Shown piece after piece: positions 3,903 through 44,241 of a stretch of DNA of 44,241 bases; position 1 is the stretch's first letter, and each line of letters opens with the position of its first letter. The notes below the pieces were generated by a model. The model was not told the DNA's origin, made no database searches, and worked only from the letters and a program-made list of their open reading frames with translations. Source of the DNA: Escherichia phage vB_EcoP_KAW1A4500; sequence record MK373773.1. One strand, given 5' to 3'. The position numbers and the translations under genes are program-made.

Positions 3903-6528
3903 ATGCAAGACCTACACGCTATTCAACTTCAACTTGAAGAAGAAATGTTTAACGGCGGTATCCGTCGCTTTGAAGCGGACCAACAACGCCAGATTGCATC
4001 CGGTAATGAATCAGACACGGCATGGAATCGCCGTTTATTGTCCGAGTTAATCGCGCCAATGGCTGAAGGTATTCAGGCATACAAGGAAGAGTATGAAGGT
4101 AAAAGAGGCCGTGCACCGCGTGCATTAGCTTTCATTAACTGCGTAGAAAACGAAGTGGCAGCATATATCACGATGAAAATCGTTATGGATATGCTGAATA
4201 CAGACGTTACCTTACAAGCAATCGCTATGAATGTAGCGGACCGCATCGAAGACCAAGTACGTTTTAGCAAGCTGGAAGGTCACGCAGCTAAGTACTTTGA
4301 GAAAGTGAAGAAGTCGCTTAAGGCTAGCAAGACTAAATCTTATCGTCATGCGCACAACGTAGCGGTAGTAGCTGAGAAATCTGTTGCTGACCGTGACGCG
4401 GATTTCTCCCGTTGGGAGGCATGGCCTAAAGATACCTTGCTACAAATCGGTATGACCTTGCTAGAAATACTGGAAAATAGTGTATTCTTCAATGGTCAGC
4501 CTGTCTTTCTTCGCACCTTGCGCACTAATGGTGGCAAGCATGGCGTTTACTACTTACAGACCAGTGAACACGTAGGGGAATGGATTACAGCATTTAAAGA
4601 ACATGTAGCGCAACTTAGCCCGGCTTATGCACCTTGCGTTATACCTCCGCGTCCGTGGGTTTCTCCTTTTAATGGCGGTTTTCACACTGAGAAGGTAGCA
4701 AGTCGTGTGCGTCTTGTTAAAGGCAGCCGTGAACGTCCGCAAGCTGACCAAAAAGCAAATGCCAGCGGTTTACAAGGCTGTTAACGCTTTGCAGGCGACT
4801 AAATGGCAGGTTAACAAGGAAGTTTTACAGGTTGTTGAGGACGTAATACGGCTTGATTTAGGCTATGGCGTACCTTCCTTCAAACCACTCATCGACCGCG
4901 AGAACAAGCCAGCTAATCCGGTGCCGTTAGAGTTCCAGCACCTGCGAGGCCGTGAACTGAAAGAAATGTTAACACCGGAACAATGGCAAGCCTTCATCAA
5001 CTGGAAAGGTGAATGCACCAAGCTGTATACCGCTGAGACTAAGCGCGGCAGCAAATCGGCGGCGACCGTCCGCATGGTAGGGCAGGCCCGTAAATACAGC
5101 CAATTTGACGCAATATACTTCGTGTATGCTCTGGACAGCCGCAGCCGCGTCTACGCGCAATCTAGCACGCTCTCTCCGCAATCAAACGACTTAGGCAAGG
5201 CATTGCTCCGTTTTACCGAAGGGCAGCGTCTTGATAGCGCTGAGGCGCTTAAGTGGTTTTTGGTGAACGGGGCTAATAACTGGGGTTGGGATAAGAAAAC
5301 TTTTGACGTGCGCACCGCTAACGTGCTGGATAGTGAATTTCAAGACATGTGCCGCGACATTGCAGCGGATCCGCTGACCTTCACTCAATGGGTAAATGCC
5401 GACTCCCCTTACGGCTTCCTTGCATGGTGCTTTGAATATGCGCGTTATCTGGATGCACTGGATGAAGGCACGCAAGACCAATTCATGACGCACCTCCCAG
5501 TCCATCAAGATGGTAGTTGTTCTGGTATCCAGCACTACAGTGCTATGCTACGCGATGCAGTAGGTGCGAAAGCGGTAAACCTTAAGCCCTCTGACTCACC
5601 TCAAGATATTTATGGTGCCGTTGCGCAGGTAGTAATTCAGAAGAATTATGCATACATGAATGCAGAGGATGCGGAAACCTTCACTTCTGGCAGCGTGACT
5701 TTAACAGGTGCAGAACTTCGTAGCATGGCTAGTGCGTGGGATATGATAGGAATCACTCGCGGCCTGACCAAAAAGCCTGTAATGACACTACCTTATGGCA
5801 GCACACGTCTAACCTGCCGTGAATCAGTGATTGATTATATCGTTGATTTGGAAGAAAAAGAGGCCCAACGGGCTATTGCGGAAGGGCGTACCGCCAATCC
5901 TGTACATCCTTTTGATAATGACCGCAAAGACAGCCTGACACCTAGCGCAGCTTATAACTATATGACAGCTTTAATCTGGCCTTCTATTTCGGAAGTGGTT
6001 AAAGCTCCTATAGTGGCAATGAAAATGATTCGTCAGCTTGCACGTTTCGCAGCTAAAAGAAACGAAGGCTTAGAATATCCCTTACCAACTGGCTTCATCT
6101 TGCAACAAAAGATAATGGCTACCGATATGCTCCGCGTATCCACTTGCTTGATGGGTGAAATCAAGATGAGTCTCCAGATTGAAACAGATGTAGTTGATGA
6201 AACGGCAATGATGGGTGCGGCTGCTCCTAACTTCGTCCATGGTCACGATGCTAGCCACCTGATTCTGACTGTATGTGACCTAGTGGATAAAGGTATTACA
6301 TCCATTGCAGTCATCCATGATTCTTTCGGTACTCATGCAGGACGTACCGCAGACCTGCGGGATAGCTTAAGGGAAGAAATGGTTAAGATGTATCAAAACC
6401 ATAATGCCCTGCAAAATCTGCTAGATGTGCACGAAGAGCGTTGGTTAGTAGACACCGGAATCCAAGTACCAGAGCAAGGAGAGTTTGACCTTAACGAAAT
6501 CTTAGTTTCAGACTATTGTTTCGCATAA
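3903..6528 (+). CDS. Phage single-subunit DNA-directed RNA polymerase (SP6-type), interrupted by an apparent frameshift near 4734
   Basis: Two overlapping ORFs (3903..4784 and 4705..6528) together give an RNAP of about 874 aa; N-terminus [19 protein letters not shown] and palm motifs ([21 protein letters not shown]) match SP6-type RNAP as recalled. Confidence 0.9.
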
Positions 6529-6535
6529 TATTAAT

Positions 6536-6564
6536 AGGCCATTCCTTAGGGAGTGGCCTTTTTC
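6536..6564 (+). terminator. Intrinsic terminator after RNA polymerase gene (early terminator)
   Basis: AGGCCA/TGGCCT 6-bp stem with internal pairing followed by TTTTT, 8 bp after the RNAP stop. Confidence 0.6.
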
Positions 6565-6602
6565 TTTACCTACTACCTGTAACATTTCATTAACATAAAA
6601 GT

Positions 6603-6618
6603 GTCTCACATGTGAGAC
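6603..6618. promoter_or_regulatory. Perfect 16-bp palindrome GTCTCACATGTGAGAC (family copy 1)
   Basis: Perfect dyad; 2 bp upstream of promoter P1. Family copies at 6794, 9103, 10261, 15203, 31645. Confidence 0.7.
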
Positions 6619-6620
6619 TT

Positions 6621-6643
6621 ATTTACCGGACACTATAGGATAG
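6621..6643 (+). promoter_or_regulatory. Phage RNAP promoter P1 (ATTTACCGGACACTATAGGATAG), variant
   Basis: Matches the genome-wide SP6-type consensus at the GGACACTATAG core; positional analogue of T7 phi1.1A. Confidence 0.65.
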
Positions 6644-6659
6644 CCGTCGGAGACGGGAA

Positions 6660-6790
6660 AGAAAGGGAAGATAAAGGATATAAAGGAAGTAATAGGTATT
6701 AAAGGTTATATAGGTTATCTAGGAACACCTAGGAATACCTATTACCTTCTTCCTTCCTCTTATTACCACTTAGAGGAAGGGCAGACCTAG
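6660..6790. other. AT/purine-rich TAGG-repeat element with dyad symmetry; candidate primary replication origin
   Basis: Repeats of TAAAGG/TATAGG/CCTAGG between two tandem phage promoters, downstream of the RNAP gene and upstream of gp1.1-like and primase genes, as at the T7 primary origin (analogy is inference). Confidence 0.4.
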
Positions 6791-6793
6791 GTT

Positions 6794-6809
6794 GTCTCAC
6801 ATGTGAGAC
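6794..6809. promoter_or_regulatory. Perfect 16-bp palindrome GTCTCACATGTGAGAC (family copy 2)
   Basis: Identical to copy 1; 5 bp upstream of promoter-like P2. Confidence 0.7.
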
Positions 6810-6814
6810 TTCGT

Positions 6815-6837
6815 ATTTACCGGACAGTATAGATAAG
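6815..6837 (+). promoter_or_regulatory. Phage RNAP promoter-like P2 (ATTTACCGGACAGTATAGATAAG), degenerate
   Basis: 19/23 match to consensus, with a C-to-G change in the core; positional analogue of T7 phi1.1B. Confidence 0.45.
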
Positions 6838-6863
6838 ACTAACTCACTTTGGAGATTTTAACC

Positions 6864-6992
6864 ATGCGTAACTTTGAGAAGATGTCCCGTAAAGCTAACC
6901 GTTTTGACATGGAAGAAGGGCAGACGAAAGGCAAGAAGCTGAATAAACCTGTCCGTGACCGTGCATCTAAACGCGCTGCGTGGGAGTTCTAA
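6864..6992 (+). CDS. Gene 1.1-like small basic protein (42 aa)
   Basis: Translation MRNFEKMSRKANRFDMEEGQTKGKKLNKPVRDRASKRAAWEF closely resembles T7 gp1.1 as recalled; GGAG RBS; below ORF-track cutoff. Confidence 0.7.
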   Translation: MRNFEKMSRKANRFDMEEGQTKGKKLNKPVRDRASKRAAWEF

Positions 6993-6995
6993 GTT

Positions 6996-8084
6996 ATGGC
7001 TATTATTCAGAACGTACCGTGTCCTGCCTGTCAAAAGAATGGACATGATATTACTGGCAACCATCTTATGATATTTGAGGATGGCGCTGGTTACTGCAAC
7101 CGTGGTCACTTCCATGATAACGGCAAGCCTTATTACCATAAGCCAGAGGGTGGCATCGAGATAACCGAATTACCTATTACTGGCAATATCAAATATACAC
7201 CTTCTCAGTTTAAAGAGATGGAGAAGGAAGGGAAGATTAGTGACCCTAAGCTACGCGCCATCGCACTTGGTGGTATGCGTATGAAAGACCGTTGGGAGGT
7301 CATGAATGAGCAAGAAAGGGCAGAACAAGAAGCAGAGTGGAAACTTGATGTTGAATGGTTCCTCACGCTCAAGCGTAAGAACCTTGTATCCCGTCACATT
7401 CGAGGTGACATCGCAGCAATGTACGATGTGCGCGTTGGACACGATGAAGAGGGAAGAGTCAACCGTCACTATTATCCACGATATGAAAAGGGTGTGCTTG
7501 TTGGAGCAAAATGCCGGACGTTGCCGAAGGATTTTAAGTTCGGACACCTAGGTAAACTCTTTGGTATGCAAGACCTTTTCGGTATGAACACTTTGTCTCA
7601 CGTGTTAGACAAGGGAAGACGAAAGGATTGCTTGCTTATTGTGGGCGGCGAACTGGATGCACTAGCAGCACAGCAGATGCTCCTTGATTCTGCCAAGGGT
7701 ACTAAGTGGGAAGGCCAGCCTTACCATGTATGGTCTGTCAATAAAGGTGAGTCTTGCCTTGAAGAGATAGTGCAGAACCGTGAGCATATCGCCCAATTCA
7801 AGAAGATTATATGGGGTTTTGATGGAGATGAGGTGGGGCAGAAGCAGAATCAGCAAGCGGCTCGCCTGTTTCCTGGCAAATCCTATATCCTTGAATACCC
7901 TTCTGGTTGCAAAGATGCTAACAAGGCATTGATGGCAGGGCTAAAGAGTTTGTTGATGCTTGGTTTAATGCCAAGTCATCTGATGAAGTCTTTGGTAGCC
8001 AGATTAAATCTATCGCATCTCAAAGGGATAAGCTCAAGGCTGCACGTCCAGAGCAAGGGTTATCATGGCCTTGGCCTAAGCTGA
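6996..8084 (+). CDS. DNA primase domain of a gene-4-like primase/helicase; ORF tail is out of frame
   Basis: N-terminal Cys4 zinc ribbon (CPACQ...CNRGH) and TOPRIM-like GFDGDE segment up to CKDAN; after about 7932 the homologous reading continues in another frame. Confidence 0.85.
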   Translation: MAIIQNVPCPACQKNGHDITGNHLMIFEDGAGYCNRGHFHDNGKPYYHKPEGGIEITELPITGNIKYTPSQFKEMEKEGKISDPKLRAIALGGMRMKDRWEVMNEQERAEQEAEWKLDVEWFLTLKRKNLVSRHIRGDIAAMYDVRVGHDEEGRVNRHYYPRYEKGVLVGAKCRTLPKDFKFGHLGKLFGMQDLFGMNTLSHVLDKGRRKDCLLIVGGELDALAAQQMLLDSAKGTKWEGQPYHVWSVNKGESCLEEIVQNREHIAQFKKIIWGFDGDEVGQKQNQQAARLFPGKSYILEYPSGCKDANKALMAGLKSLLMLGLMPSHLMKSLVARLNLSHLKGISSRLHVQSKGYHGLGLS

Positions 8085-8927
8085 ACAAGGTAACGCTAGG
8101 TATTCGTAAGAACCAGCTTATCATTGTAGGTGCAGGCTCTGGTGTAGGTAAGACTGAGTTCCTCCGCGAAGTGGTTAAACACCTCATTGAAGAGCACGGT
8201 GAATCTGTAGGCATCATTTCTACAGAAGACCCGATGGTCAAGGTGTCCCGTGCTTTTATCGGTAAGTGGATTGATAAGCGCATTGAGTTACCGCCAACCA
8301 ATGACCCGAAAGAAGACGGATACCGTGAGGTGTTCGACTACACCGAGGAAGAAGCTAACGCTGCCATTGATTATGTGGCTGATACAGGAAAGCTATTTGT
8401 GGCTGACTAGAAGGCGACTATTCTATGGAGAAGGTAGAGCAAACTTGCCTAGTTTGAGGCTATGGGCATTTCTAATATCATCATTGATAACTTAACGGGG
8501 ATTAAATTAGATGAGCGTGCTTTTGGGGAAGGTTGGTGCACTTGATGAATGCGTCAAACGAATTGGTACTATCAAAGACCGACATGCGGTTACGATTTTC
8601 CTTGTCTCTCACCTTACACGTCCTCCGGCAAACCGTACCCAACACGAAGAAGGTGGCGAAGTTATCCTTTCTGACTTCCGAGGCTCAGGCGCTATCGGAT
8701 TCTGGGCATCTTACGCCTTGGGATTGAGCGTAAGAGAACGCTTGATGAAAGGACTACCACGTACATCTCGTGTGTCAAAGACCGCGATCAAGGTATCTAC
8801 ACTGGAAAAGGTCATGCTTAAAGGTGACATTCAGACCGGACGTTTGATGGAACCACAAGCCCGTACTAAGTCATTTGATACAGTGAAGCAAGGCAGCAAG
8901 AGGTGCCTGATTTACCGGACACTATAG
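7922..8927 (+). pseudogene. Helicase domain of gene-4-like primase/helicase, split into at least three frame segments
   Basis: Walker A GAGSGVGKT in frame 2 (open 7922..8407), Walker B-like NIIIDNLTG in frame 2 (8453..8542), HEEGGEV...RGSGAI in frame 0 (8511..8927); stops in all three frames between 8404 and 8510. Confidence 0.8.
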
Positions 8928-9102: not shown

Positions 9103-9120
9103 TGTCTCACACGTGAGACA
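9103..9120. promoter_or_regulatory. 18-bp palindrome TGTCTCAC-AC-GTGAGACA (family copy 3)
   Basis: Perfect 8-bp arms with 2-bp centre; GC-rich flanks extend the potential stem; intergenic. Confidence 0.7.
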
Positions 9121-9384: not shown

Positions 9385-9816
9385 ATGCATAAAATGCTAT
9401 TATACCCTCTTCGCTATGGTGCTGGCATTCAAACCTTAGCAGAGGCATATGGCAAAGGTAAGACTACACTTAATAAAGATCGCCGCAATGTAATCACTAG
9501 TAAGACTCAAAGTGAAATGATTAAGCAATGTGGCACTGCACTAGGTGTTACGCAGTTTAACACTCGTGCTCTTGGTAAATCCACAGGACAAGCTATGGTG
9601 AAGATTGGTGAAGCCATGATGCACCCAAATGTACCTGTGCGAATCATGGATGTTGACCATGCAATCACAGAACACGGTACACCACGACGTGTAGCTAATA
9701 AGCATTTTGCCGACACTATAGAAGGTATTATCCGTAAGCAAGGGTTGAAAGGTCTTCACCTCTTGAATGGTGAAGAATTACTGTATCTCCCTATTGTTAC
9801 TGAAAAACCTACGTGA
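9385..9816 (+). CDS. Cys-rich protein, hypothetical; ORF may really begin at ATG 9156 (frame break at 9157-9165)
   Basis: ORF track 9385..9816; the same frame is open back to 9154 without a start codon, while a GGAG-preceded ATG at 9156 is one base out of frame. Confidence 0.5.
   Translation: MHKMLLYPLRYGAGIQTLAEAYGKGKTTLNKDRRNVITSKTQSEMIKQCGTALGVTQFNTRALGKSTGQAMVKIGEAMMHPNVPVRIMDVDHAITEHGTPRRVANKHFADTIEGIIRKQGLKGLHLLNGEELLYLPIVTEKPT
9703..9725 (+). promoter_or_regulatory. Weak internal phage-promoter-like site (GCCGACACTATAGAAGG core)
   Basis: Core GACACTATAGAAGG is exact; upstream recognition region has about 3 mismatches; lies inside the 9385..9816 ORF. Confidence 0.25.
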
Positions 9817-10416: not shown

Positions 10417-12949
10417 TTGGAAGAAGGAGGCAGAAGGCCGTATCCTCGTGATGGATGCGGAAGCTAAAGGACTCCTTGACGCTATCCGCTATGGTCATCG
10501 TGAAGATGTGCATATCATTTGCTGCATGGACTTGCTTACTACCGAGGAGTTTCTCTTCTTTGACCCGTATGAGATGCGTGACCCTGAAGCAAGAGAACAC
10601 CTGAAGGAATGGGAAGGTCATCAAGATGGTGACTTGGTTGATGGTGTTAACTTCCTGAAGCACTGTGAAGCTATTGTGTCGCAGAACTTCCTAGGGTACG
10701 ACGGCCTTCTATTTGAGAAAGCATTCCCTGATATCTGGAAAGGCTTTAACTATACCGAGAGACGCGGCAAGGGCAGACTCCGCGCTGACCTGTGTCCGGT
10801 ACGCGTCATGGATACGCTGGTCATGAGTCGCCTGTTAAACCCCGATAGACGCCTCCCTCCGCAAGCATACGCCAAAGGCATGGGTAACGTAGCCCCTCAC
10901 TCAATTGAGGCGCACGGCATTCGTATAGGCCGTTATAAGCCGGAGAACGAGGATTGGTCTAAACTAACTGACCACATGGTACATCGTGTACGCGAGGACG
11001 TGGCGATAGGCCGTGACCTATTCCTCTGGCTATTTAACGGAGAATGGACGGAGCACAAACGCCGTGGCGTGAATAAACGCACTGGCCTAGGTATTGAGAC
11101 AGCCTTCCACATGGAGTCCATTGTGGCGCTGGAGATGAGCCGTCAGGCCGAGCGTGGATTCCGTCTGGATATAGATAAAGCATTAGCACGATGCGAGGAA
11201 TTGGACGCTAAGATTGATGAGACAGTCGCAGCGTTCCGTCCGCACATGCCTATGCGTATCAAGTCTAAACCTTTTAAACCGGAAGAAAAGAATGAAGTAT
11301 GCCAACGCGCAAATGAGTATGGAGCTAGCAACAATATACCTACTGTCCTTGACCCCTCTCACTTTCTTCACGCAGAGAGACGAGGAGATCGCAAGACAGT
11401 ATGGAGTGTCACTACTAAGTCTGGTGATTGGTCGGCTAGCGTCAAGAAAGACTTTCCTCACCTTAGAGGAAACCGTAATGACACGCCAAGCATCAAGTGG
11501 ATTGGCGCTTACTCGCCTGTTACTTTCGAAGAGATTCCCTTGGGTAACAGGGATACAGTTAAGCAAGTGCTCTATGATTATGGATGGAAAGGTGTTGAAT
11601 TTAACGATACCGAGCAAGCGCATCTCGATGAGCATGGCGTATTACCCAAGCCTTGGAGTGGGAAGATAAATGAAAAGTCCCTTACTTTATGGCAAGAGAG
11701 AGCCGCACGTGAAGGTAAAACAGTCCCTGATTGGTGCTTGGGTATCGCTGCATGGTACATACTCGTATCCCGTCGTGGTCAGATCCTCAACCGTGGTGAC
11801 GTTGAAGCCTTCGACCAGAAGGGGGTGTGGCCTTCGCAAGCTGGTATACGAAAGTGTCGCGGCCTTGTACCTGTAGCATTTAACAAGGAGTTAGGAATCA
11901 ATGCGCAGCAATACTACGAAAGGTACGGATGCTGGCCTACGTCAGACAAGGATGACGGAGAATGGCGTGTGCCAGCTATTGCTATTAGTATTGGAACTTC
12001 TACGTTCCGTATGCGTCATCGTAACGTGGTTAATATTCCTGCCCGTGGTTTGTATCCTTTACGTGATTTATTCATAGCCGGTAAAGGTAAGCTAATCCTT
12101 GGTTGTGATGGTGCTGGTCTTGAACTACGTGTACTGTCTCACTTCATGAATGACCCTGAATATCAAGATATTGTACTGCATGGTGACATTCACACCCATA
12201 ATCAAATGAAGGCTGGTCTTCCTAAGCGTGACATGGCGAAGACATTTATATATGCCTTCCTATATGGGTCTGGTATAGCTAACCTTGCAGCAGTATGTGG
12301 TGTTACTGAGGAAGAAATGGAGGAAGTTGTGGCAAGATTTGAGGTTGAACTACCATCTCTTGCACGTCTTCGTGAGAATGTTATCGCACAAGGTAACAAG
12401 TTTGGCTACCTACAAGCACCTGATGGTCATTGGGGTCGCATCCGTATGTCTGGTGGTGAACTTAAAGAGCACACTATGCTTAACGTACTACTCCAGATGA
12501 CTGGTTCTCTGTGTATGAAATACGCATTGGTCAGAGCGTTTGCAGTGATGCGCAAGGAAGGTGTGGCCTTAGATAGCATGGGAAACCCTTGCGGTATAGC
12601 TAACGTGCACGATGAAATCCAGATGGAAGTCCCTGAAGATGAGGTCTTGTATCTCAACTACGACTTGCCTTTCACCTTAGAAGGGTTCGAAACAGAGAAG
12701 GCTGCTGTGAAAGCAGTGTTCGATGCAGAGGAGAAACGTGTTCATGTGGATTCTGAAGGACGTATGTGGTCTGCTGCAAATCTCGTTAGCGTTGATGCTG
12801 ATGCTGGTGTACTTCATTGCCAGCGTCGTTATCACCGTGCAGGGCATATCATTGCCGATGCAATGACTTGGGCTGGTCATTATTTGAAGATGCGTTGTCC
12901 GATGGCAGGTGAGTATAAGATTGGTGCAAGCTGGAAGGAAACACACTGA
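10403..12949 (+). CDS. DNA polymerase, family A with 3-prime to 5-prime exonuclease domain (T7 gene 5 family)
   Basis: ORF track 10376..12949 with ATG at 10403 after GGAGGA; exo motif VMDAEAKGL, motif A GCDGAGLELRVLSHF, motif C VHDEIQ. Confidence 0.9.
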   Translation: MKTVDWKKEAEGRILVMDAEAKGLLDAIRYGHREDVHIICCMDLLTTEEFLFFDPYEMRDPEAREHLKEWEGHQDGDLVDGVNFLKHCEAIVSQNFLGYDGLLFEKAFPDIWKGFNYTERRGKGRLRADLCPVRVMDTLVMSRLLNPDRRLPPQAYAKGMGNVAPHSIEAHGIRIGRYKPENEDWSKLTDHMVHRVREDVAIGRDLFLWLFNGEWTEHKRRGVNKRTGLGIETAFHMESIVALEMSRQAERGFRLDIDKALARCEELDAKIDETVAAFRPHMPMRIKSKPFKPEEKNEVCQRANEYGASNNIPTVLDPSHFLHAERRGDRKTVWSVTTKSGDWSASVKKDFPHLRGNRNDTPSIKWIGAYSPVTFEEIPLGNRDTVKQVLYDYGWKGVEFNDTEQAHLDEHGVLPKPWSGKINEKSLTLWQERAAREGKTVPDWCLGIAAWYILVSRRGQILNRGDVEAFDQKGVWPSQAGIRKCRGLVPVAFNKELGINAQQYYERYGCWPTSDKDDGEWRVPAIAISIGTSTFRMRHRNVVNIPARGLYPLRDLFIAGKGKLILGCDGAGLELRVLSHFMNDPEYQDIVLHGDIHTHNQMKAGLPKRDMAKTFIYAFLYGSGIANLAAVCGVTEEEMEEVVARFEVELPSLARLRENVIAQGNKFGYLQAPDGHWGRIRMSGGELKEHTMLNVLLQMTGSLCMKYALVRAFAVMRKEGVALDSMGNPCGIANVHDEIQMEVPEDEVLYLNYDLPFTLEGFETEKAAVKAVFDAEEKRVHVDSEGRMWSAANLVSVDADAGVLHCQRRYHRAGHIIADAMTWAGHYLKMRCPMAGEYKIGASWKETH

Positions 12950-13065: not shown

Positions 13066-13163
13066 TGCAAACTGCTTTTATCATTCTTGGGATCATATTA
13101 TTTATGGTAGTATTCTGGGCTTTCTCTGGCATTGACCCAGATTGTGATGGTAACTACGACTGA
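13065..13163 (+). CDS. Small membrane protein, hypothetical (32 aa)
   Basis: ATG overlaps the previous stop; hydrophobic core AFIILGIILFMVVFWAF. Confidence 0.3.
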   Translation: MQTAFIILGIILFMVVFWAFSGIDPDCDGNYD

Positions 13164-13231
13164 GTTATACTCAAGGTCACTTACGAGTGGCCTTTATGAA
13201 TAACTTATTCCTACTTATTTTGTCTAACATG

Positions 13232-13254
13232 ATTTACTGGACACTATAGAAGGA
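13232..13254 (+). promoter_or_regulatory. Phage RNAP promoter P4 (ATTTACTGGACACTATAGAAGGA)
   Basis: Consensus 23-mer, intergenic. Confidence 0.8.
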
Positions 13255-13318
13255 AAGCCTAGGTAATCTAGGTTTATAAGGTAGTATAGGTAATTAAGTA
13301 AATATAGGAGATATAAAT
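13255..13318. other. AT-rich TAGG-repeat element downstream of P4
   Basis: CCTAGGTAATCTAGG...GTAGTATAGGTAATT resembles the elements at 6660..6790 and 38370..38435. Confidence 0.35.
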
Positions 13319-13696
13319 ATGTCTATGGTAACTACTCTGGTATTCGTGGCTCAATACTTTCGTGGTCTGGCTAATAAGTTCAAGGCTAAGGCTATCAAAG
13401 CTATTGAGTCTCGCATCGAAGCAGTGCAGGCAGAGCAGGTTGAAGTTGAAGAACATCGCAGCTCTCAAATGATTGACTGCCATAACCGCTACTATGCATC
13501 TCGTGATGACCTTAATGCGCGTCAAGTCAAAGAAGTGGAAGAGATGTTAGCTCGTCACCAGCAAGAGCGTGACAAACTGAAAGCTGACTTCGAAGAGAAC
13601 AAGGCATCCATTGCTCTGGTACATCAAGCTGCATCTGACAGTCTGAAGAAAGAGATTGTTATGCTGGAGATTGAACTGGACAACCTGACTAAGTAA
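13319..13696 (+). CDS. Coiled-coil protein, hypothetical (125 aa)
   Basis: ORF track; AGGAG RBS; charged heptad-like sequence. Confidence 0.6.
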   Translation: MSMVTTLVFVAQYFRGLANKFKAKAIKAIESRIEAVQAEQVEVEEHRSSQMIDCHNRYYASRDDLNARQVKEVEEMLARHQQERDKLKADFEENKASIALVHQAASDSLKKEIVMLEIELDNLTK

Positions 13697-36450: not shown

Positions 36451-38348
36451 TGGCTAAGGCAAGAGAATCACAAGCGGAGGCTCTTGCCAGATGGGAGATG
36501 CTACAGGAGTTACAGCAGACCTTTCCTTACACAGCGGAAGGTTTGCTTCTCTTTGCAGATACAGTTATTCATAACTTAATTGCAGGCAACCCTCATCTGA
36601 TTCGTATGCAGGCGGATATCTTGAAGTTCCTATTTTACGGACACAAGTACCGCCTCATCGAAGCGCCTCGTGGTATCGCTAAGACAACACTATCAGCAAT
36701 CTATACGGTATTCCGTATTATTCATGAACCACATAAGCGTATCATGGTTGTGTCCCAAAACGCCAAGCGAGCAGAGGAAATCGCAGGTTGGGTAGTTAAA
36801 ATCTTCCGTGGCTTAGACTTTCTTGAGTTTATGCTGCCGGATATCTACGCTGGGGACCGTGCATCCGTTAAGGCGTTTGAGATTCATTACACCCTACGTG
36901 GTAGTGATAAGTCTCCTTCTGTATCCTGTTACTCAATCGAAGCAGGTATGCAGGGTGCTCGTGCTGATATTATTCTAGCGGATGACGTAGAGTCGATGCA
37001 GAATGCTCGTACGGCAGCGGGCCGTGCCTTGCTTGAGGAACTGACTAAGGAGTTTGAATCTATCAACCAGTTTGGGGATATCATTTACCTTGGTACACCT
37101 CAGAACGTAAACTCTATCTACAACAACCTACCTGCTCGTGGTTACTCTGTTCGTATCTGGACTGCGCGTTACCCTTCAGTAGAGCAAGAGCAATGTTATG
37201 GCGACTTCCTTGCACCTATGATTGTTCAAGATATGAAGGACAACCCAGCACTTCGCTCAGGATACGGGTTGGATGGTAATAGTGGTGCACCTTGTGCCCC
37301 TGAAATGTATGATGATGAAGTCCTGATTGAGAAGGAAATCTCTCAGGGTGCTGCTAAGTTCCAGCTTCAGTTCATGCTTAACACTCGCATGATGGATGCT
37401 GACAGATACCCATTACGCCTGAACAATCTAATCTTCACCTCGTTTGGTACAGAGGAAGTCCCTGTGATGCCTACGTGGAGTAATGATTCCATAAACATCA
37501 TTGGTGATGCACCTAAGTATGGTAACAAGCCTACGGATTTCATGTACAGACCTGTAGCTCGCTCATACGAATGGGGTGCTGTCTCCCGCAAGATTATGTA
37601 TATTGACCCTGCGGGTGGTGGTAAGAACGGAGATGAGACGGGTGTAGCCATCGTATTCCTGCACGGCACATTCATTTATGTGTATCAGTGCTTTGGTGTA
37701 CCTGGCGGATACCGAGAGTCGTCCCTGAATCGCATTGTGCAGGCCGCAAAGCAGGCGGGTGTTAAAGAGGTATTCATTGAGAAGAACTTTGGTCATGGCG
37801 CGTTTGAGGCGGTAATTAAGCCGTACTTTGAACGAGAGTGGCCTGTAACTCTGGAAGAGGATTACGCCACCGGACAGAAAGAGTTGCGTATCATTGAGAC
37901 GCTGGAGCCGCTCATGGCAGCCCATAGGCTTATCTTCAATGCAGAGATGGTGAAGTCAGACTTTGAGTCGGTACAGCACTATCCGCTTGAACTACGCATG
38001 TCCTACAGTCTTTTCAATCAAATGTCGAACATAACGATTGAGAAGAACAGCCTCCGGCACGATGACCGCCTAGACGCCCTGTATGGCGCTATACGGCAAT
38101 TAACTTCTCAGATAGACTATGACGAGGTTACACGGATTAATCGCCTCAGAGCGCAGGAGATGCGCGATTACATCCATGCTATGAATACACCTCATCTACG
38201 CAGGGCAATGCTATATGGAGATTACGGTACTGAGCGAAGAGTGACCAACACTTCCGTAGCGATGCAGCAGCGAGTTTACGGGCAGAACTACCGAAATAAA
38301 TCGGCAAGCAGAAATACACTTTCTGCAAGGATTTCAAGGACCTATTAA
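36447..38348 (+). CDS. Terminase large subunit (633 aa)
   Basis: Large ORF after the small terminase with overlapping start; size and position as T7 gene 19. Confidence 0.82.
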   Translation: MMAKARESQAEALARWEMLQELQQTFPYTAEGLLLFADTVIHNLIAGNPHLIRMQADILKFLFYGHKYRLIEAPRGIAKTTLSAIYTVFRIIHEPHKRIMVVSQNAKRAEEIAGWVVKIFRGLDFLEFMLPDIYAGDRASVKAFEIHYTLRGSDKSPSVSCYSIEAGMQGARADIILADDVESMQNARTAAGRALLEELTKEFESINQFGDIIYLGTPQNVNSIYNNLPARGYSVRIWTARYPSVEQEQCYGDFLAPMIVQDMKDNPALRSGYGLDGNSGAPCAPEMYDDEVLIEKEISQGAAKFQLQFMLNTRMMDADRYPLRLNNLIFTSFGTEEVPVMPTWSNDSINIIGDAPKYGNKPTDFMYRPVARSYEWGAVSRKIMYIDPAGGGKNGDETGVAIVFLHGTFIYVYQCFGVPGGYRESSLNRIVQAAKQAGVKEVFIEKNFGHGAFEAVIKPYFEREWPVTLEEDYATGQKELRIIETLEPLMAAHRLIFNAEMVKSDFESVQHYPLELRMSYSLFNQMSNITIEKNSLRHDDRLDALYGAIRQLTSQIDYDEVTRINRLRAQEMRDYIHAMNTPHLRRAMLYGDYGTERRVTNTSVAMQQRVYGQNYRNKSASRNTLSARISRTY

Positions 38349-38369
38349 TTACTGGACACTATAGAAGGA
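38347..38369 (+). promoter_or_regulatory. Phage RNAP promoter P9 (AATTACTGGACACTATAGAAGGA)
   Basis: Consensus 23-mer overlapping the terminase stop; positional analogue of T7 phiOR. Confidence 0.75.
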
Positions 38370-38460
38370 AGGCCAGATAATAAGAGAAATAATAGGTAAT
38401 ATAGGTTAACCTAGGTTATATAGGTATGCCTTAGTATGGGTGTACTCCTGTACACCCTAT
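38370..38460. other. AT-rich TAGG-repeat element plus 8-bp-stem hairpin downstream of P9
   Basis: AATAATAGGTAATATAGGTTAACCTAGGTTATATAGGTAT resembles 6700..6745 and 13258..13300; hairpin GGGTGTAC-TCCT-GTACACCC at 38438..38457. Confidence 0.4.
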
Positions 38461-38503
38461 TCCTTACTACCTTACTATATTTACATAATAGGAGAGAGAG
38501 ACA

Positions 38504-38779
38504 ATGGCTAATGATTATAGTAGTCAACCATTAACAGGTAAGTCTAAGAGAAAGCAGGTACAACCTGTAAGTGAAGAACTAATGCTTCCGGTAATCCCAA
38601 AAGAGGCAGCTAGTAAGAAAAGCAATGTTATTAATGATGCCACCAAATCAGGTAAACAGAAAGGGGCCATGGTATGCCTTGAAGTGGACGGTGCATTGAA
38701 GATTGCTATCGCTGTTGATGGCAAAGAAGATTCAGAGTGGAAGTTAGTGACAGGGGAACCCACTGTTACCCCAGTTTAA
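38504..38779 (+). CDS. Paralog family member 1 (91 aa), hypothetical late protein
   Basis: ORF track; shares SGKQxGAMV...IAIAVDGKE...W core with the next two ORFs. Confidence 0.6.
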   Translation: MANDYSSQPLTGKSKRKQVQPVSEELMLPVIPKEAASKKSNVINDATKSGKQKGAMVCLEVDGALKIAIAVDGKEDSEWKLVTGEPTVTPV

Positions 38780-43974: not shown

Positions 43975-44241
43975 TCTCGCCCTCGCCCTCGCCGGATTTC
44001 CCCCATATGGGGCCGCGCTGCGGTTGGCTTGGGAGTTGGGCTGGGCTGGTCCGTCTTCGACGGGTGGCCTAGGGCTTGCCGAGGTCTGCTCTTAGTGGCT
44101 GCACAAGGAGAACGCCTAGGAAGCGCTAGGGCACGCCTTAGTATTGGACAAGGTGATTGCCTTAGTGCAACCGCTTAGGGCTTACACAGGCCGTTTTAGG
44201 GCCATTCCTGAGCTTTTGACAGGGTGGGCGTGGGTGGGCTA
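43975..44241. repeat. Right direct terminal repeat (DTR), 267 bp
   Basis: Identical to 1..267; preceded by CTTAGTG-type short repeats at about 43770..43890. Confidence 0.9.

Follow-up and report, generated by a model that had tools for sequence, protein, structure and literature searches.

The spacer behind the RNA polymerase gene

The window analysed here is the complete genome (44,241 bp) of Escherichia phage vB_EcoP_KAW1A4500 (MK373773.1), a K1E-like Vectrevirus of the SP6 group (Autographiviridae, Molineuxvirinae). Our subject is its non-coding spacer between the RNA polymerase gene (3903-6528) and gene 8, which is followed by the primase/helicase gene according to the published K1E annotation. 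In this spacer two tandem promoters for the phage RNA polymerase, P1 and P2, flank a purine-rich array of TAGG repeats whose duplex is one of the least stable in the genome, and by analogy with phage T7 we regard the non-coding stretch as a reasonable but unproven candidate for a replication origin. In our best reading, the region is the start of the first middle-gene (DNA metabolism) transcription unit of an SP6/K1E-type phage. Positions 6400-7000 are 99.3-99.5% identical to K1E isolates and match 83 phage records. For comparison with more distant relatives, K1E, K1-5, SP6, BP12B and Klebsiella phages were aligned together with loci recovered via the primase gene, which are designated by L numbers.

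A preliminary description of this DNA had listed a terminator, two palindromes, two promoters, an AT-rich repeat with dyad symmetry and a 17-bp box. All of these elements are present at 6533-6863, with slightly corrected coordinates. Directly 3' of the RNA polymerase stop codon (6528), the plus strand carries a hairpin and T-run resembling an intrinsic terminator (6533-6568). This predicted terminator consists of a 10-pair stem (6536-6559; six of the ten pairs are G-C) followed by TTTTTCTTT. Its arms extend to 13 nt (6533-6545 and 6550-6562, 85% complementary), and the alignment shows it to be kept in SP6, BP12B and the Klebsiella phages, where substitutions in the stem compensate each other. 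At the corresponding T-run, the relative ULINTec4 (L047, MZ997839.1; locus 465-690) has a run of about 220 bp that is nearly all T and is annotated as a 94-aa protein; we rejected this apparent 218-bp insertion as almost certainly an assembly artefact. The alignment of relatives further delimits a conserved non-coding block on the plus strand, TTACCTACTACCTGTAACATTTCATTAACATAA (6566-6598), which is nearly invariant in the K1E, SP6 and Klebsiella lineages, exceeding its flanks, and is absent in L026, L033 and L036. A sigma-70 scan found no promoter in this block or elsewhere in the spacer. The perfect 16-bp palindrome GTCTCACATGTGAGAC is present at both 6603-6618, 2 nt upstream of P1, and 6794-6809, 5 nt upstream of P2.

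P1 (ATTTACCGGACACTATAG, 6621-6638) and P2 (ATTTACCGGACAGTATAG, 6815-6832) both lie on the plus strand and are predicted to start transcription at G6638 and G6832, respectively. When P1's own 18-nt sequence was used as the search pattern, 12 predicted phage promoters were found in the genome at no more than three mismatches, against 0.01 expected by chance: the site at 8910 is identical to P1 and ten others differ by one to three mismatches. P2 deviates from P1 by a single change, C to G at -5, and is alone among the 12 sites in having G at this position; its counterpart in SP6 and the Klebsiella phages deviates at -1 instead. P2 may be the weaker promoter, as the preliminary description had it. 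The promoters of the genome also fall into two subclasses, with ATTTACCGGACAC found only at 6621, 6815 and 8910, around the replication genes, and ATTTACTGGACAC at the later promoters 13232, 15234, 23483 and 40689. P1 is conserved in all relatives compared, and between P1 and P2 there is no plus-strand open reading frame of at least 20 aa. The wide retention of both promoters and the absence of a reading frame between them suggest that P1 does something that P2 does not. In having no reading frame directly behind it, P1 is like the replication promoters of T7.

The P1 transcript would open with the hairpin CCGTC-GGA-GACGG (6644-6656, plus strand; +7 to +19 of the transcript). Behind it, analyses of repeats, composition and stability define an AT- and purine-rich array on the plus strand (6657-6741) of about eight units with the core (A/T)AGG; Tandem Repeats Finder gives a unit length of 9-10 bp. 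Eight AGG triplets at 6664-6731 are spaced by 11, 9, 10, 9, 9, 9 and 10 bp, bearing out the TAGG repeats of the preliminary description. The AGG density of this region is the genome maximum (9 per 110 bp; mean 2.15, standard deviation 1.41), the most purine-rich 60-bp window of the genome starts at 6649 (0.82), and the AT content in the array rises to 0.73-0.77 as compared to 0.548 for the genome. The array contains one 10-bp unit (CTAGGAACAC) more than the K1E reference and K1-5. Such shifts in length by whole 10-bp units among close relatives fit a sequence without coding constraint. A long dyad (6683-6751) pairs a purine arm (6683-6700) with a pyrimidine arm (6734-6751; 18 nt, 89% complementary) around an apex centred on CCTAGG. 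It is directly followed by a small dyad (6752-6780), whose 9-bp arms CCTTCCTCT and AGAGGAAGG (6752-6760 and 6772-6780, 100% complementary) enclose a loop of 11 nt. The 17-bp box AAGGGCAGACCTAGGTT is located on the plus strand at 6777-6793 and has a second copy inside gene 8.

Duplex stability and the relation to T7

All windows of the genome were ranked by nearest-neighbour duplex stability, with SantaLucia parameters and the T7 genome as control. In T7, the four least stable 50-bp windows start at 427, 5937, 18560 and 39244 and lie just downstream of phiOL, phi1.1B, phi6.5 and phiOR. This result holds for window lengths of 30-80 bp, at which all four sites remain within the top five. We take phiOL to be a replication promoter; phi1.1B, phi6.5 and phiOR are documented origins (PMC8373140). 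In the K1E-like phage, the three least stable 50-bp windows start at 13275, 38377 and 6671 and correspond to three TAGG arrays that follow promoters. The window at 6671, in the P1 array, is the third least stable of the genome (0.05th percentile), and a gap separates the three arrays from the next promoter-proximal site (-52.8 vs -55.8 kcal/mol). The P1 array also ranks third at 40 and 80 bp and fourth at 60 bp. Moreover, it is the least stable window of its own locus of about 4 kb in SP6, L023, L025, L028, L041 and the close K1E relative L010.

The product of gene 8 shares 56% identity with T7 gp1.1 (E 5e-13) and matches the Pfam family PF08200 (Phage_1_1, 'Bacteriophage 1.1 protein') above the cutoff (E 1.4e-14). 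Gene 8 is thus a true homologue of T7 gene 1.1, and the spacer corresponds in position to the primary origin region of T7. The T7 record has phi1.1A (5848) and phi1.1B (5923) in the spacer that separates gene 1 from gene 1.1, and the relative position in the genome is nearly the same (15.0% for P1, 14.8% in T7). T7 initiates replication at phi1.1A/phi1.1B; if these are removed, initiation occurs at secondary origins such as phiOR and phi6.5, and all T7 origins require a T7 promoter as one of their components (PMC8373140). A single primase recognition site is located in the primary origin (PMC2910064). The preliminary description had considered the resemblance to be one of layout only; the homology of gene 1.1 and the T7-calibrated stability ranking go further than that. 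Its statement that the region mirrors the T7 primary origin stands in regard to the gene 1.1 homologue, the position, the tandem promoters with an easily melted stretch and the stability rank, but not as a description of features specific to an origin.

The likeness to the T7 primary origin thus comprises a spacer between the RNA polymerase gene and gene 1.1 at about 15% from the left end, two tandem phage promoters, a promoter immediately followed by some of the least stable duplex in the genome, and, close by, a hairpin that resembles T7 R1.1. There are also differences. The easily melted stretch consists of purine-rich 9-10-bp repeats with a dyad, whereas T7 has a TTAAG-rich sequence; a terminator of host type precedes P1, whereas the early terminator of T7 follows gene 1.3; and the array is without a conserved primase site. 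With phiOR, phi6.5 and phiOL of T7, the P1 region shares the immediate succession of a phage promoter and a very AT-rich, easily melted stretch. Three such modules exist in the K1E-like genome (6621, 13232 and 38347) compared to four in T7. Unlike these three T7 promoters, which are found at 1%, 46% and 98% of the genome, the other two modules lie at 30% and 87%, the modules of K1E and SP6 have the TAGG unit in common, and two of them also serve as leaders for the genes next to them.

The order of terminator, palindrome, P1, 5' hairpin, AGG array, pyrimidine arm, palindrome, P2, gene 1.1 and primase is common to K1E, K1-5, SP6, BP12B, the Klebsiella phages and also metagenomic relatives whose primase identity is as low as 56%. 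L031-L033, at 74% primase identity, keep the order without the second palindrome, and in L036-L039, at 56%, the arrangement is simplified to two palindromes, two promoters and a purine-rich 140-nt spacer with no clean array. The SP6 group as a whole retains tandem promoters of which the first is followed by easily melted DNA. This conservation bears on the reading that the spacer is incidental, i.e. ordinary AT-rich intergenic DNA with slippage repeats that merely carries two promoters. Such an explanation would agree with the gain and loss of 10-bp units among close relatives and with several intergenic sites being nearly as AT-rich, and chance could account for the box and its copy in gene 8. 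However, order and content persist at primase identities of 56-74%, 86% of the spacer aligns with SP6 at about 70% identity, the dyad is kept while its arms change, and purine content and AGG density are the highest of the genome. We therefore consider an incidental origin of the arrangement highly improbable.

Gene 8 itself (6864-6992, plus strand) starts with the ATG at 6864 and encodes 42 aa. It is followed on the same strand by the 5' part of the primase/helicase gene (6996-8084) with the zinc-finger N-terminus and the Toprim domain, its frame being shortened by small deletions. Compared to two K1E records, the segment 7900-9230 carries dozens of deletions of 1-10 bp, which break the primase/helicase gene after 8084 as well as the following genes, and a 2-bp deletion at 4732-4733 splits the RNA polymerase frame (3903-4784/4705-6528). 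These frame-breaking deletions look like the result of poor assembly or sequencing quality rather than biology. In several relatives (BP12B (L006) at 904-1270; L029-L031, L035 and L043), an HNH homing endonuclease or other small genes separate gene 1.1 from the primase gene or precede P2, which makes the junction of gene 1.1 and primase gene a frequent insertion point. The genome is bounded by a direct terminal repeat of 267 bp (1-267 and 43975-44241) that starts with three copies of CTCGCC. Beside the left repeat, at 316-440, CTTAGG/CTTAGT motifs recur about every 24 bp in an array that recalls the short repeats adjoining the T7 terminal repeat.

Repeats, hairpins and palindromes within and beyond the leader

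In the 5' hairpin of the P1 leader, the GGA loop is invariant and the stem varies in a compensatory manner (CCGTC/GACGG, CCCTC/GAGGG in L027 and CCTTC/GAAGG in L031-L033). Compensatory changes of this kind look like the behaviour of RNA elements, and other promoters of the genome, e.g. 23483 and 14001, likewise begin their predicted transcripts with hairpins. Further downstream, every lineage retains a purine/pyrimidine stem of 12-18 bp although the arm sequences differ; in the K1E-like phage, the leader hairpin (6683-6751) comprises 17-18 pairs plus an apex helix. These structures could be explained if the region were a module for expression and RNA processing only. P1 and P2 would then serve as tandem promoters for the DNA-metabolism genes, and replication would start elsewhere. 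The 5' hairpin would shield the message from decay, Shine-Dalgarno-like (A/U)AGG motifs would bind ribosomes or proteins and thereby stabilise or tune it, and the long hairpin and the palindromes would act as processing or 3'-end hairpins, possibly as RNase III sites as in T7. We regard this main rival of the origin reading as possible, if somewhat doubtful. It leaves unexplained why P1, whose 226-nt leader serves no separate gene, stands beside P2 in all lineages. The folding z of single leader sequences is modest at -1.0 to -2.4 in K1E, SP6, BP12B, the Klebsiella phages and L026; in L033/L031 it is about -5. Applied to 14 relatives, RNAalifold supported no conserved helices besides the 5' hairpin and the palindrome; that it missed the long hairpin probably reflects ambiguity in aligning the repeats. 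When the stretch is folded as DNA, z is -2.6 for one strand and -3.1 for the other. Since both DNA strands fold equally well, the dyad is not specifically an RNA feature, and an RNA role cannot be separated from a DNA role. A function in RNA metabolism would also be compatible with an origin, as the same transcripts do both jobs in T7.

RNA processing has a precedent at the corresponding locus of T7, where the RNase III site R1.1 lies between phi1.1A and phi1.1B. Sites of this type are bipartite stems of about 20 bp with an internal loop, and the 3' side of their upper stem carries the conserved motif GGCCUUUAUGA. Its 15-nt form GAGTGGCCTTTATGA, which served as the search pattern, is found at seven positions in T7. 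The ends of these matches fit the cleavage coordinates of R0.3, R0.5, R1.1, R1.3, R4.7, R6.5 and R18.5. In the K1E-like phage, GAGTGGCCTTTATGA occurs exactly at 13185-13199 and in degenerate form, with three mismatches, in the 3' arm and tail of the terminator (GAGTGGCCTTTTTCT, 6551-6565). The exact match is part of a hairpin at 13160-13225 (upper stem, internal loop, lower stem; z = -3.85), immediately upstream of promoter 13232. This element closely resembles T7 R1.1 and has no counterpart at the matching place in SP6. Three palindromes, at 9104, 10262 and 31646, likewise have a fold made up of upper stem, internal loop and lower stem (z of -4 to -7), the shape of a T7 RNase III site, which agrees with a role in processing. 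In contrast, the 16-bp palindromes beside P1 and P2 are bare hairpins of 6-8 pairs with z near 0 and no extended lower stem, too short for RNase III, and the leader hairpin does not contain the T7 motif. A search of 6300-7100 against Rfam returned nothing near any gathering score.

The combination of promoter and TAGG array recurs twice on the plus strand. A second module (13232-13319) comprises a promoter (13232-13249) and a TAGG array (13260-13308) that holds the least stable 50-bp window of the genome. The third (38347-38504), with the second least stable window, consists of a promoter (38347-38364), a TAGG array (38392-38426), a hairpin (38434-38455) and a pyrimidine arm. The counterparts in SP6 (L009) follow the promoters 12542 (12542-12630) and 37773 (37773-37925). 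The hairpin of the third module differs in a compensatory way between K1E (GGGTGTAC/GTACACCC) and SP6 (GGGAGGTA/TACCTCCC). Both arrays run straight into the ribosome-binding sites of the genes at 13320 and 38505, as would be expected of elements that act in the message.

Recurrence of the TAGG unit at three promoter-proximal sites in both K1E and SP6 could also indicate an iteron-like array for protein binding, with direct TAGG repeats to the left and inverted copies to the right of the CCTAGG dyad. A phage or host protein might then regulate P1 and P2 or assemble the replication helicase. The regular AGG spacing (9-11 bp over eight units), the strand symmetry of the dyad and a near-palindromic apex (TAACCTAGGTTA-like), which is conserved at the switch from purines to pyrimidines in several lineages, are in line with this idea. 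The right arm, on the other hand, is not periodic (CCT spacings 10, 7, 7 and 4), the unit sequence drifts among lineages, and a period of 9-10 bp is shorter than the helical repeat of DNA. No DnaA box, integration host factor (IHF) site, GATC or T7 class II pause signal is present in 6500-6900, and no candidate binding protein has been identified. In addition, replication of the T7 type is not known to need an initiator protein besides RNA polymerase (PMC8373140). On balance, protein binding of this kind appears improbable.

The palindrome that precedes P1 and P2 is likewise found elsewhere. With 8 copies in the genome (581, 6603, 6794, 7595, 9104, 10262, 15203 and 31646) compared to 0.21 expected, it constitutes a dispersed family, in which all copies but the three shaped like RNase III sites are bare. 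SP6 contains 9 copies (493, 6093, 6264, 7071, 8547, 9383, 14255, 17752 and 30569), of which 8 are at positions matching the K1E-like phage, with the sequence GTC(C/T)AAC..GTTGGAC. The half-sites change together in each lineage, from GTCTCAC..GTGAGAC in K1E to a third version, GTCTACA..TGTAGAC, in L036-L039. Six of the nine SP6 copies carry a T.G pair that is tolerated in the plus strand only, a further observation that would suit a function of the transcript.

A candidate origin and its meaning for SP6-type phages

We tentatively suggest a dual-purpose module of promoter and leader, in which transcripts from P1 would serve as messenger RNA and some of them would also prime rightward DNA synthesis as in T7. 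We give this proposal serious weight although we would not rely on it. Host-polymerase transcription of the early genes would end at the terminator behind the RNA polymerase gene, and the phage polymerase would start at P1 to produce a 226-nt non-coding leader. This leader would open with a stabilising hairpin and then pass through DNA that is unmatched in the genome for purine content and is among its most easily melted parts. P2 would be an ordinary promoter with a short leader for gene 1.1 and the primase/helicase gene, and transcripts from P1 may be processed. Following the T7 model, some of them could remain hybridised in the array and be extended by the phage DNA polymerase into a rightward leading strand, and the displaced strand could allow loading of the primase/helicase and hence leftward synthesis. 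The region would thus serve both expression and replication priming, as phi1.1A/phi1.1B do in T7, and the modules at 13232 and 38347 might be counterparts of the T7 secondary origins. Any start of DNA synthesis at this locus is something we infer from these parallels.

Transcription-primed (R-loop) origins are known from T4, with ori(uvsY) and ori(34), and from ColE1. The P1 region resembles them in that a promoter is followed by a DNA-unwinding element and in that a purine-rich transcript would be expected to form a stable hybrid with its template. A persistent hybrid at P1 is hypothetical. The calculated advantage of the RNA:DNA hybrid over the DNA duplex is in the top 0.2% of windows at 6636. 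The T7 origins do not stand out by this measure when it is calculated in the same way; it therefore has no control behind it, and we rejected it as an origin marker and retain it as a side observation. The change point of GC skew was discarded for the same reason. The detrended cumulative minimum is at 7207 here (block-permutation p 0.08) and at 6690 in SP6 (p 0.34), and since the minimum of the T7 control is at 9537 and not at a T7 origin, GC skew is uninformative.

Besides these two failed markers and the RNA-like behaviour of the hairpins at P1 and other promoters, several findings weigh against an origin at P1. The P1 array drops out of the top six when 30-bp windows are used, the arrays at 13232 and 38347 melt more easily, and the sites 885, 9126 and 40837 are nearly as unstable. 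In the L033 and L036 lineages, the tandem promoters are kept but the AT-richness is not, and the array is not the least stable window. The AT-rich stretch lies between the two promoters, whereas it follows the second one in T7. The same 9-bp TAGG arrays follow the promoters 13232 and 38347, so that the architecture is not specific to an origin, and the dispersed occurrence of the palindrome means that this element is not origin-specific either. Palindromes and TAGG repeats are found genome-wide and are thus not to be taken as origin markers. The box AAGGGCAGACCTAGGTT is kept in the K1E group and SP6 and is without conservation outside these lineages.

Primase sites give a similar picture. The site of the SP6 primase is 5'-GCA-3' (PMC2034472), and this specificity was used in our search although that of the K1E primase itself may differ. 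Neither GCA nor TGC, and hence no such site on either strand, occurs in 6523-6781. The sole top-strand GCA between P1 and gene 8 (6781-6783) is inside the box and outside the array, and it is absent in 9 of 14 relatives including BP12B, the Klebsiella phages, L026 and L033. Pentamers of the T7 primase type are found in the region only at 6601 (plus strand) and 6629 (minus strand). Furthermore, Dobbins et al. 2004, as far as this is conveyed by PMC4837284, reportedly placed a bidirectional origin of SP6 at gene 14 (DNA polymerase). In the accessible literature we found no experimentally mapped origin for the SP6/K1E/K1-5 group (Molineuxvirinae), and the SP6 and K1-5 genome papers may already propose the one discussed here.

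If true, an origin at P1 of the T7-type, transcription-primed kind is what a specialist would expect by analogy. Less expected are the three-module pattern and a palindrome family that changes in step within each lineage. A bolder and, taken as a whole, unlikely proposal would be that SP6-group phages carry an undescribed family of three unwinding modules, each made up of a promoter and a TAGG array and two of them with a dyad, that represent one primary and two secondary origins, and that the palindromes separately mark sites read by a lineage-specific factor instead of being plain hairpins. Phages of the SP6/K1E/K1-5 group have found broad use in therapy and engineering. Genome rebooting, the design of minimal genomes and the construction of plasmids based on SP6-type polymerases, comparable to recent plasmids with T7 origins, would benefit from a defined origin candidate. 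The ranking of duplex stability provides three precise candidate sites, and an origin at these sites would show whether the T7 rule of a promoter plus an easily melted stretch extends across the Autographiviridae.

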